The notes below the pieces were generated by a model. It searched no databases, was not told the origin of the DNA, and saw nothing but the letters and a program-made list of their open reading frames with translations. A stretch of 64,000 nucleotides of DNA from Escherichia coli O157:H7. GTDB taxonomy: Bacteria; Pseudomonadota; Gammaproteobacteria; Enterobacterales; Enterobacteriaceae. Below, one piece after another: positions 1 through 2,531 of the stretch. Where the stretch lies: NCBI RefSeq assembly GCF_013167455.1, contig NZ_CP038328.1; one strand, 5' to 3'. The position numbers and the translations under genes were made by a program. How positions within the stretch are numbered: the first letter of the stretch is position 1; each line of letters begins with the position of its first letter.

Positions 1-196
1 CAACCTAAACTTTCCGTTAATCACCAAGATATCAACAGATTATACTCACTGAGTACACATTTTTACAATTGCTATTTCTCACATTAAGATGCGCATACCA
101 ATCTCTTATTTGACACTTTCTTATTTGTTACTAGAGTTAATTGGGTGCTGACAAGGCACATGTTATTTACAATTTGAAAATCAGAGGAGAAATGAT

Positions 197-379
197 ATGA
201 CCGAACATCGTGGCGGTGCAGGTAATTTCGCTGAAGATCGACAAAAAGCTTCTGACGCTGGTCGTAAAGGCGGCCAACATAGTGGCGGTAATTTTAAAAA
301 CGATCCACAAAGAGCATCAGAAGCAGGGAAAAAAGGTGGTCAGAATAGCCATGGTGGCGGCCGTAAATCTGACTCTTAA
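197..379 (+). CDS. yciG: KGG-repeat general stress protein (YciG/YmdF family)
   Basis: 60 aa, Gly-rich with repeated (R/K)KGG motifs; RBS GAGGAG upstream; heads a yciF-yciE-katN cluster. Confidence 0.8.
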   Translation: MTEHRGGAGNFAEDRQKASDAGRKGGQHSGGNFKNDPQRASEAGKKGGQNSHGGGRKSDS

Positions 380-416
380 TTTATCACCCCCTACATTCGT
401 GAATAACTGAAGCTAA

Positions 417-438
417 CTGCGAGCCTACGGGCTCGCAG
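417..438 (+). other. Perfect 9-bp stem hairpin (CTGCGAGCC-TACG-GGCTCGCAG) in the yciG-yciF intergenic region, no T-run
   Basis: Read directly; possible RNA processing or stability element. Confidence 0.4.
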
Positions 439-451
439 TGAAAACTCTGGA

Positions 452-958
452 GTGATTATGCAAATTAAATCTGTTGAAGATATCTTCATCCACTTATTAT
501 CGGATACATACAGCGCTGAGAAACAACTAACAAAGGCACTGTCTAAACTTAGTCGCTCTGCATATAGTGATAAATTAACCGCTGCTTTTCAGTCACATCT
601 TGATGAGACACATGGTCAAATTGAACGCATCGATCAGGTTGTTGATTCTGAAGATGGTCTTAAATTGAAAAGAATTAAGTGTGCCGCAATGGAAGGACTT
701 ATCGAAGAGGCGAATGAGGTAATTGAAAGCACTGATAAAAATGAAGTACGTGATGCTGCATTGATTGCTGCAGCACAAAAAGTAGAGCACTATGAAATTG
801 CCAGTTATGGCACTTTGGTAACACTCGCTGAGCAATTAGGATATAAAAAAGCGGCTAAACTCCTGAAAGAAACACTGGAAGAGGAAAAAGCTACTGATGT
901 CAAATTAACAGACCTGGCATTTAATAACGTTAATAAAAAAGCTCAGGATAACTCCTGA
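452..958 (+). CDS. yciF: YciF, ferritin-like DUF892 stress protein
   Basis: 168 aa; N-terminus IKSVEDIFIHLLSDTYSAEKQLTKAL matches recalled YciF. Confidence 0.8.
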   Translation: MIMQIKSVEDIFIHLLSDTYSAEKQLTKALSKLSRSAYSDKLTAAFQSHLDETHGQIERIDQVVDSEDGLKLKRIKCAAMEGLIEEANEVIESTDKNEVRDAALIAAAQKVEHYEIASYGTLVTLAEQLGYKKAAKLLKETLEEEKATDVKLTDLAFNNVNKKAQDNS

Positions 959-994
959 ACTATAGACTTCAATTTCTTTTAGGATAAACAGATT

Positions 995-1501
995 ATGAAT
1001 AGAATTGAACATTACCATGACTGGCTTCGTGATGCACATGCGATGGAAAAACAAGCTGAAAAAATGCTTGAGTCTATGGCCAGCCGGATAGAAAACTATC
1101 CTGAGTTACGTTCCAGAATTGAGCAGCACATTAGCGAAACAAAGAACCAGCTTTCACAGCTTGAAAGCATACTTGATCGTAATAATATTTCGCGCTCTGT
1201 CATTAAAGACTCTATGAGTAAAATGGCCGCGTTTGGACAATCCATTGGTGGAATTTTTCCATCTGATGAAATTGTCAAAGGTTCGATCAGTGGCTATGTG
1301 TTCGAACAATTTGAAATTGCGTGTTACACATCTCTTCTCGCAGCAGCCAAAAATGCGGGTGATACAGCTTCAGTACCCATTATTGAAGCAATTCTTAATG
1401 AAGAAAAACAAATGGCTGAATGGCTTCTTAACCATATTCCTGACACCACTGAGCAATTCATGGTCAGATCTGAAATTGATGGAGTTGAAGCCAAAAAATA
1501 A
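995..1501 (+). CDS. yciE: YciE, ferritin-like DUF892 stress protein
   Basis: 168 aa; MNRIEHYHDWLRDAHAMEKQAEKMLESMASRI matches recalled YciE. Confidence 0.85.
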   Translation: MNRIEHYHDWLRDAHAMEKQAEKMLESMASRIENYPELRSRIEQHISETKNQLSQLESILDRNNISRSVIKDSMSKMAAFGQSIGGIFPSDEIVKGSISGYVFEQFEIACYTSLLAAAKNAGDTASVPIIEAILNEEKQMAEWLLNHIPDTTEQFMVRSEIDGVEAKK

Positions 1502-1519
1502 TTCTTTTGAGGAGGCATT

Positions 1520-2410
1520 ATGTTTAGACACGTGAAAAAACTTCAATATACAGTACGTGTAAGTGAGCCAAACCCAGGCTTGGCTAATCTACTCTTAGAA
1601 CAATTCGGTGGGCCACAGGGTGAGCTTGCAGCAGCATGCCGATACTTCACTCAAGGCTTAAGTGATGAAGATGCAGGCCGAAGGGATATGCTGATGGACA
1701 TAGCAACAGAAGAACTAAGTCATCTCGAAATTATTGGTTCTCTTGTTGGTATGCTCAACAAAGGTGCAAAAGGAGCACTTGCTGAAGGAACTGAGAATGA
1801 AGCTGAGCTTTACCGTTCCTTAACTCAAAATGGCAATGATAGCCATATAACTTCTCTCCTCTACGGAGGAGGCCCAGCATTAACTAATTCAGCTGGAGTA
1901 CCCTGGACTGCAGCTTATGTTGATACTATTGGCGAAGTCACGGCCGATCTTCGTTCAAATATTGCAGCTGAAGCTCGGGCAAAGATCATTTACGAACGTC
2001 TCATTAATGTTACTGATGATCCTGGAGTAAAAGACACTCTGGCATTTTTAATGACCCGGGAAGCAGCACACATGCTTTCATTTGAAAAAGCATTACATTC
2101 AATTCGTAACACCTTTCCACCAGGAAAATTACCACCACTTGAGAAATACAAAAACGTATATTACAACATGTCAGAAGGTGAAGACGTCAGAGGTAGTTGG
2201 AACAGTGATGAAAACTTTGACTATGTTTCCGATCCAGTTTCAGCGGTTGACGGTGGGGATGGGAAGGCCTCGATAAATCTTTCGACCAAGCAAGAAGCTA
2301 TGATAAAAGCTATGGCAACAAGGTTGAAATCCCATGAAGACATCAATCCTGTCACTGGCGCTGAGCTTGCTGAAGGAGAACCACAAACAAAGATAAATAG
2401 TAAAAACTAA
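1520..2410 (+). CDS. katN: Manganese (non-haem) catalase, KatN-like
   Basis: 296 aa, ferritin-like Mn-catalase; last gene of the yciGFE-katN arrangement known from Salmonella. Confidence 0.8.
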   Translation: MFRHVKKLQYTVRVSEPNPGLANLLLEQFGGPQGELAAACRYFTQGLSDEDAGRRDMLMDIATEELSHLEIIGSLVGMLNKGAKGALAEGTENEAELYRSLTQNGNDSHITSLLYGGGPALTNSAGVPWTAAYVDTIGEVTADLRSNIAAEARAKIIYERLINVTDDPGVKDTLAFLMTREAAHMLSFEKALHSIRNTFPPGKLPPLEKYKNVYYNMSEGEDVRGSWNSDENFDYVSDPVSAVDGGDGKASINLSTKQEAMIKAMATRLKSHEDINPVTGAELAEGEPQTKINSKN

Positions 2411-2498
2411 TTATCTTCTGGTATTTAGCTATCCCTCATAAGTTAATTGCCGCTGAGATATCCTAAGCTCTAGCCTCTGAAAATACATTTATATTTCG

Positions 2499-2531
2499 AA
2501 GCCCGCGATATTTTAAGCGGGCTTTTATTTT
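2499..2531. terminator. Bidirectional intrinsic terminator between katN (+) and tfa (-)
   Basis: Hairpin AAGCCCGC-n10-GCGGGCTT followed by TTATTTT; A/T runs on both sides. Confidence 0.55.

Follow-up and report, generated by a model that had tools for sequence, protein, structure and literature searches.

The yciG-yciF-yciE-katN operon of Escherichia coli O157:H7 as probable cargo of the icd prophage Sp8/CP-933X, whose right attachment site appears to have been lost in an IS1203-marked deletion

Background

The manganese catalase gene katN of Escherichia coli O157:H7 strain EDL933 is located in an operon with z1922-z1924 that resembles yciGFEkatN of Salmonella, and it has been described as horizontally acquired and carried on the cryptic prophage CP-933X (PMC5363993). 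Expression of katN in EDL933 is raised by RpoS and OxyR and is >450-fold higher in the absence of H-NS, the gene aids growth under oxidative stress, and KatN is reported to be secreted via a type VI system (PMC5363993). The prophage Sp8 of strain Sakai contains Int and Xis, lacks CI/Cro and yielded neither detectable excision nor an excised circle (PMC2669165). Here we analyze a window of 64,000 nucleotides (nt) from E. coli O157:H7 (NZ_CP038328.1), the whole stretch of DNA under study, which contains this prophage in the isocitrate dehydrogenase gene icd and, at its tail-fibre end, the operon yciG-yciF-yciE-katN. Our reading, to which we assign a probability of about 90%, is that this katN cassette is cargo of the icd prophage and that the right attachment site, attR, was lost in O157:H7 by a deletion marked by an insertion sequence (IS).

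Several described systems resemble parts of this locus. Integration of e14 and of phage 21 in icd has reportedly been described by Hill and colleagues in 1989 and by Wang and colleagues in 1997. In these elements, the duplicated part of icd has the same starting point as in the O157:H7 prophage, and the phage replaces the last 165 nt of the gene together with its terminator; the displaced fragment survives at attR in K-12 as icdC, whereas in O157:H7 it appears to have been deleted. Salmonella enterica carries a sigma-S-dependent yciGFE-katN with the same gene order and domains, which is chromosomal, while the O157 copy is prophage-borne. The moron concept comes from Hendrix and colleagues, and morons and genes of the lambda b region such as bor and lom likewise have a terminator of their own and a deviant base composition, are located at the late-operon end of lambdoid prophages and vary by presence and absence. 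Unlike the single genes bor and lom, the unit studied here is a four-gene stress operon, the own promoter of which is only a candidate.

The right end of the K-12 prophage DLP12 (ybcY, tfaX, appY, ompT, envY) is a cargo arm of the same type, with a methyltransferase gene, a tfa fragment and ompT, and DLP12 also has emrE-like and ybcK-like genes in common with Sp8. It differs in its location at argU and in lacking the katN cassette, and the O157 arm has hydrolase, helix-turn-helix (HTH) and acetyltransferase genes instead of appY. Small deletions driven by IS629/IS1203 and excision of these IS in O157 are said to have been described by Ooka and colleagues in 2009 and by Kusumoto and colleagues in 2011. 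The pattern at Sp8 is the same and nothing unusual, with a junction IS that lacks a target duplication and with sublineages set apart by loss of the IS or by additional deletions next to it.

Results

The katN operon as cargo of the icd prophage

A lambda-like prophage fills the window from tfa (2530) to a lambda-type integrase gene (36187-37329), beyond which follow icd (37443-38693, minus strand), rluE, nudJ, mnmA, hflD, purB and phoPQ. By its position in icd, this is Sp8 of Sakai and CP-933X of EDL933. Its layout in window order is attR side, cargo arm, tfa, stf, tail, head, lysis, nin region, replication genes, int, attL and icd. Window positions 1-2530, which match many E. coli O157:H7 chromosomes at 100% identity, contain yciG, yciF, yciE and katN, all on the plus strand, followed by a hairpin terminator and the convergent tail fibre assembly gene tfa (2530-3111, minus strand; PF02413, Caudo_TAP, E 3.4e-45). 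Open reading frames (ORFs) and Pfam matches thus bear out a first-pass annotation of this sequence, which had placed the cluster directly against the tail-fibre end of the prophage.

The gene order and the KGG, DUF892, DUF892 and Mn-catalase domains are those of the yciGFE-katN stress operon, and the locus is the same as Z1921-Z1924 (katN-yciE-yciF-yciG) of Sp8/CP-933X. The first gene (197-379) encodes a yciG-like protein of 60 amino acids (aa) with KGG repeats (PF10685, E 1.1e-16), 93% identical to K-12 YciG over 43 aa. It is followed by two genes for ferritin-like DUF892 proteins, a yciF-like gene (458-958, 166 aa; PF05974, E 3e-54; 80% identity to K-12 YciF), which has an alternative GTG start at 452, and a yciE-like gene (995-1501, 168 aa; PF05974, E 1.2e-50; 88% identity to K-12 YciE). 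The last gene, katN (1520-2410, 296 aa), is Z1921 of EDL933 and encodes a manganese catalase (PF05067, E 7.9e-87) with 84% identity to Salmonella KatN.

The operon appears to be cargo of the prophage, as judged from gene orders in related strains. In strain 2014C-3011, the order is tfa, katN-yciE-yciF-yciG, methyltransferase, tfa fragment, hydrolase, ompT, ISEc8, HTH, acetyltransferase, icd fragment and iraM. The cassette is thus located 8.8 kb inside an intact icd-type attR, which makes the stress operon prophage cargo and bears out one of two alternatives offered by the first-pass annotation, namely that the cluster is carried by the prophage distal to tfa. The prophage of strain A0 34/86 has the order stf, tfa, methyltransferase, tfa fragment, alpha/beta-hydrolase, ompT, HTH regulator, acetyltransferase, icd fragment, ycgX, bluR and bluF. 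Here, and in O55:H7 strain DEC5D, tfa and the methyltransferase gene are separated by 29 bp and there is no cassette. This cargo arm corresponds to the lambda b region. The position of ISEc8 in the arm differs between strains: in O157 it separates the hydrolase gene from the tfa fragment (locus L001, 16301-18743), and in 2014C-3011 the HTH gene from ompT (L007, 7101-9543).

Boundaries and distribution of the cassette

Comparison with cassette-free prophages shows that yciG-yciF-yciE-katN is a discrete 2.8-kb cassette inserted between tfa and the methyltransferase gene, the first gene of the cargo arm. The window begins within the cassette, the left end of which is located about 253-266 nt before window position 1 (L001, 19734-19747). 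Homology breaks directly after the terminator hairpin of the methyltransferase gene, at L001 position 19746, which is 254 nt before window position 1. On the right, the boundary is at 2547/2548, with homology to cassette-free prophages restarting at 2548, 18 nt into tfa. By this resumption of homology, the last 18 nt of tfa (2530-2547, minus strand; protein end EWPVIPEV and stop) travel with the cassette.

For the distribution of these segments, we scanned 5426 complete genomes. The cassette was present in 381 of these, and tfa was found under the match in every listed row inspected (70 rows in two listings, with some strains in both). The junction between the methyltransferase gene and the cassette was common to 345 genomes, and a match across the junction on the tfa side was seen in 375 only. 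The flanks were far more widespread: the methyltransferase gene was found in 3842 genomes, with homology breaking at the same point among the listed cassette-free rows, and tfa was matched in 4718 genomes, with most listed rows starting at 2548-2549 and a few at 2538-2545. The cassette was also found at other prophage sites. In strain 100181 it is part of a prophage integrated in ydfJ (the Qin site), directly beside the truncated ydfJ, and its left break differs by at most 13 nt from the one given above. Prophages of the argU/DLP12 site likewise carry the cassette at their tfa end. Two O157 strains, 644-PT8 and Z1723, have two copies of the katN cassette, one presumably on a second prophage.

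Recombination in the conserved tfa and methyltransferase flanks is the probable route by which the cassette passes from one lambdoid prophage to another. We consider it unlikely, but the cassette might be moved between icd, argU and ydfJ prophages by a dedicated mechanism of exchange at the tfa 3' end, be it a hotspot or a site-specific process, instead of by plain homologous recombination; it is invariably joined to the same 18 nt of tfa, and its other break is always at one point behind the methyltransferase terminator. If this were so, the end of tfa would serve as a defined docking site for cassettes that benefit the host.

The G+C content of the cassette is 39.0%, compared with 56.4% in the tail region. 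The first-pass annotation had described the operon as AT-rich and apparently acquired. The composition agrees, and acquisition is supported by presence and absence of the cassette, but low G+C content is insufficient on its own since the chromosomal yciGFE of K-12 is also at 42%. What does testify to acquisition is the presence/absence pattern between otherwise matching prophages. The cassette is thus located inside an attachment-site-bounded prophage past the late genes, varies by presence and absence with sharp boundaries and differs in composition from the backbone. By analogy, it seems to behave as a moron, a self-contained unit of benefit to the host that would be expressed from the lysogen. 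With an orientation convergent to the late genes and a terminator of its own, it would not depend on phage late transcription.

This terminator had been annotated as bidirectional, which holds for one strand. On the katN strand, a hairpin at 2498-2525 (RNAfold -16.0 kcal/mol) is followed by a T-tract, and the predicted intrinsic terminator of the operon (2498-2534, plus strand) is found only in cassette-bearing genomes. The same hairpin folds at -15.3 kcal/mol on the tfa strand, with no U-run after it. It would therefore be a proper terminator for katN only and at best a weak one for tfa.

An attL and no attR

The lambda-type integrase gene (36187-37329, plus strand) encodes Arm-DNA-bind_1 and Phage_integrase domains, and its 3' end faces icd. 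A comparison of the window with the prophage-free O55:H7 strain DEC5D revealed 12 mismatches in 8119 nt, 6 of which are located at 37449-37590, within the last 165 nt of icd. The duplicated icd segment starts at the same point as that of e14 and extends through the icd terminator. The same allele of the icd 3' end was found, at 99-100% identity, in genomes with two copies of the segment, i.e. with an intact prophage of this type. Judging from this comparison and from the copy counts, the icd end beside the integrase gene (37390-37607, minus strand) is phage-derived and the expected attL of an icd-integrating phage, supplying the last 165 nt of icd (37443-38693, minus strand), the integration target, and its terminator.

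An icd-integrated prophage is expected to have an integrase gene by icd, a replaced icd 3' end and a displaced icd 3' fragment. The first two were found here and the third was not. We searched the window and 20 kb upstream of it, taken from an O157 genome that matches the window in the overlap, with both K-12 versions of the icd 3' end using BLASTN (word size 7). The only real match was icd itself (37390-37607), and all other matches in these sequences were at chance level (E 0.07 or worse). The first-pass annotation had reported that no icd remnant marks the right attachment site, and had named a duplicate at 2411-2530, between katN and tfa, as the finding that would speak against it; BLASTN found none there, and none in the 20 kb beyond. 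Among the complete genomes scanned, the two ordinary O157-type genomes listed have a single copy of the 228-nt icd 3' segment. Relatives retain the displaced fragment, as icdC in K-12 and likewise in A0 34/86 and 2014C-3011.

An IS1203-marked deletion

In O157 strain FORC_044, the genes leftward from the cassette are the methyltransferase gene, the tfa fragment, ISEc8, the hydrolase gene, ompT, the HTH gene, the last 95 nt of the acetyltransferase gene, a 1310-bp IS1203, the last 755 nt of an autotransporter gene and minE. The junction reads ...CATCAGTGG, the 1310-bp IS1203, TTTATC..., with no target duplication, and is located about 10 kb past the left edge of the window. O55:H7 DEC5D is 99.96% identical up to the breakpoint and contains the whole prophage-free interval from minE to icd. 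Past the breakpoint it has the full autotransporter gene, ymgJ, ymgI, ymgG, ymgD, ycgH, ymgF, pdeG, ymgC, ariR, ymgA, ycgZ, bluF, bluR, ycgX, iraM and an uninterrupted icd. In this prophage-free relative, iraM adjoins icd and there is no katN, which is the comparison that the first-pass annotation had proposed for its reading.

The IS thus joins sequences that are far apart in an intact relative, without a target duplication. Comparison of the two arrangements points to a deletion in O157:H7, with IS1203/IS629 at the junction, that joined the acetyltransferase gene to the ypjA-like autotransporter gene beside minE. Missing between the endpoints are attR with the icd fragment, most of the acetyltransferase gene together with about 0.8 kb of phage DNA, and a chromosomal stretch of about 14.7 kb. 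The genes lost from the chromosome are iraM, ycgX, bluR, bluF, ycgZ-ymgA-ariR-ymgC, pdeG, ymgF, ycgH, ymgD, ymgG, ymgI, ymgJ and the greater part of the autotransporter gene. The bluR-bluF pair is missing from 416 of the 5426 genomes, a distribution compatible with its loss in the O157 clade. The second alternative of the first-pass annotation, that a deletion removed the original junction, is borne out by this IS1203 junction; the two alternatives that it had set against each other are true together. The IS may have caused the deletion.

The autotransporter gene beside minE varies among strains, with full length in DEC5D and only 344 nt (ycgI) in K-12 and many other strains. Its remnant in O157 (L001, 10492-10898) is 97-98.5% identical to ypjA/ehaD, which is at a different locus.

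Alternative explanations

The order of events at the junction could be the reverse, with a deletion unrelated to the IS and a later insertion of IS1203 in some O157 lineages. This would agree with the finding of the exact IS junction in only 127 of about 343 O157-type genomes and with strain TW14359, in which both genes are fused without any IS and without the 4 nt GTGG. These 4 nt are genuine autotransporter sequence in DEC5D and are retained in the IS-bearing genomes; since they are missing along with the IS in TW14359, the IS-bearing form is the older one, TW14359 represents a later IS loss, and the IS-free state is not ancestral. Such a loss fits the behaviour of IS629 in O157. The junction IS also lacks a target duplication, and strain 319 has this left junction too, together with another change linked to an IS: the acetyltransferase remnant and a part of the HTH gene are gone, and an inverted IS1203 is present. 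We therefore regard an IS-independent deletion as decidedly unlikely.

Three states of the junction were observed in O157 (L001, 10899-12208; L090, 5576-6885; L091, about 4208): one with IS1203 present, one in which the IS and 4 nt have been lost, and one with a second, inverted IS and a deletion into the HTH gene. These IS-dependent states could serve as lineage markers.

If the cassette were an autonomous mobile element directed to the tfa 3' end, for instance a transposon or a small integrative island, this would explain why both cassette ends are sharp and recur in three prophage contexts, with the last 18 nt of tfa always travelling along. There is, however, no transposase or recombinase gene within the cassette, and a search for terminal inverted or direct repeats around it yielded only matches of chance length. 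The conserved phage flanks, present in 3842 and 4718 genomes, offer ample homology for ordinary recombination, and we consider an autonomous element very unlikely.

It is also conceivable that attR was not deleted but moved, by inversion or translocation between prophages or IS copies, with the ompT-bearing arm derived from a prophage at argU, the DLP12 site. In O55:H7 DEC5D the same cargo arm is on an argU prophage, the argU site of O157:H7 is empty, and the methyltransferase and HTH proteins have identical accession numbers in the O55:H7 and O157:H7 lineages. Against this, the ordinary O157-type genomes checked have a single icd 3' segment, and the interval is missing at the site in three O157 genomes. 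The O157 arm is 99.1-99.5% identical to the DEC5D arm, no closer than to the arms of icd prophages with an intact attR (99.0-99.3%), and the tail genes of O157 and DEC5D are only 95.6-96.5% identical. Moreover, in A0 34/86 and 2014C-3011 this arm terminates at an attR of the icd type. A relocation of attR thus appears highly improbable. Likewise, we rejected a version in which Sp8 is the O55:H7 argU prophage relocated to icd, given tails that are only about 96% identical and an arm no closer to DEC5D than to other strains.

Finally, that the stress cluster is ordinary chromosomal DNA flanking a prophage whose last gene is tfa and which has always lacked cargo past that gene is almost certainly wrong: K-12 and other Enterobacteriaceae do carry chromosomal yciGFE(-katN) of similarly low G+C content, but that copy is located between trpA and ompW with a DNA identity of only 74%, prophage-free DEC5D has iraM beside icd and no cassette, the cassette of 2014C-3011 is inside attR, and the cassette occurs at three different prophage sites, beside tfa in every row inspected.

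Several points weigh against cargo status combined with an IS-marked deletion. Everything to the left of the window was read from other O157 genomes that match it in the overlap, and not from the window's own strain. In the O157:H7 strain PV15-279, the icd 3' segment is present three times. The presence of the IS at the junction indicates an association and does not establish a cause, and recombination between two IS copies is indistinguishable from an IS-adjacent deletion. Among 100,044 species representatives, none qualified as a close donor of the cassette, the best KatN identities being 84-87%. Lastly, consensus promoter matches in the AT-rich region upstream of yciG were close to chance, with 10 found and 7.1 expected.

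Origin of the cassette and its chromosomal relatives

At the DNA level, the cassette is 74% identical to the chromosomal yciGFE of K-12, which is located between trpA and ompW, with no katN between yciE and ompW. The Salmonella copy adjoins ompW and yciC, and the prophage copy adjoins tfa and is thus not in the trp/ompW position. O157 presumably also retains the katN-less core yciGFE, as in K-12. The products of the Salmonella operon are 88, 80, 83 and 84% identical to the prophage YciG, YciF, YciE and KatN, respectively. Among the species representatives, the best KatN matches were in Kosakonia (87%) and Salmonella (84%). In comparisons of the whole operon, the distances from the cassette to each genus were equal to those between genera. 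The non-coding flanks of the cassette had no matches in the flanks of chromosomal yciG and katN, and searches of a phage collection yielded partial matches only, at about 75-79% identity and mostly to chromosomal yciE at the ends of records.

Signals and other features of the window

The non-coding part of the cassette upstream of yciG (1-196, plus strand) has no similarity to the flanks of chromosomal yciG loci. It contains a sigma-70-like candidate, TTGACA-16 nt-TAGAGT (110-137, plus strand), which is a consensus match only. A very stable hairpin between yciG and yciF (416-439, plus strand; RNAfold -21.2 kcal/mol) has no T-run and could be a processing or attenuation signal. An Rfam scan gave no match within the cassette, the only matches being IS009 in tfa and an IS3 frameshift pseudoknot. 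The IS009 match (2570-2768, minus strand; 229 bits) is wholly within the tfa coding sequence, and this Rfam family probably represents conserved prophage tfa sequence and not a separate RNA gene. Next to tfa, at the end of the late operon, is the side tail fibre gene (3111-6032, minus strand; 973 aa), for which the matching record reads "prophage tail fiber N-terminal domain-containing protein".

The early region of Sp8 contains a segment of 36% G+C (31865-34022) with genes for a large serine recombinase (508 aa) and an SMR-family transporter (128 aa), which match ybcK and emrE of K-12 DLP12. The cI/cro region is missing from the early region, consistent with the publication on Sp8. In DEC5D, the argU site (L092) is occupied, beside envY, by another lambdoid prophage that bears ompT along with the same arm. 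At the empty argU site of O157:H7, tRNA-Arg and envY are separated by 45 bp (TW14359, L093, 22052-22935), and the ompT copy seen here is on the icd prophage, so that ompT is on different prophages in the close relatives O55:H7 DEC5D and O157:H7.

Further along the window, a satellite-like element (45509-56718), which is Sp7 by its position, is located between phoQ and roxA and contains genes for a P4-type integrase, a primase, a capsid-like protein and a small terminase. It is flanked by the direct repeat AAATATGTCC and missing from O55:H7 DEC5D; a relative interrupts the portal gene of the icd prophage of A0 34/86 (L005, about 15.5-26.3 kb). Homology to potB of DEC5D stops at about 61396, where another prophage starts and continues to 64000. 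The first large ORF of this prophage (61779-63140, 453 aa) has only a sub-threshold match to a leucine-rich repeat.

Discussion

The location of KatN (Z1921) on CP-933X and the failure of Sp8 to excise had already been published. What the present analysis adds are the boundaries of the cassette, the endpoints of the deletion and the three states of its junction. The reason for the non-excision of Sp8 was stated in neither PMC5363993 nor PMC2669165, and here we describe a missing attR, deletion endpoints marked by IS1203 and defined cassette boundaries. With attR deleted, the prophage is locked in place, and the missing attR fits the reported failure of Sp8 to excise. A literature search on the loss of bluF or pdeG in O157 found no report.

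These results confirm that the oxidative-stress operon of enterohaemorrhagic E. coli is prophage-borne, on a prophage that is stranded for want of its right attachment site. The deletion that appears to have stranded Sp8 also took from O157:H7 the BluR/BluF-YcgZ-YmgA-AriR and PdeG signalling genes and iraM.

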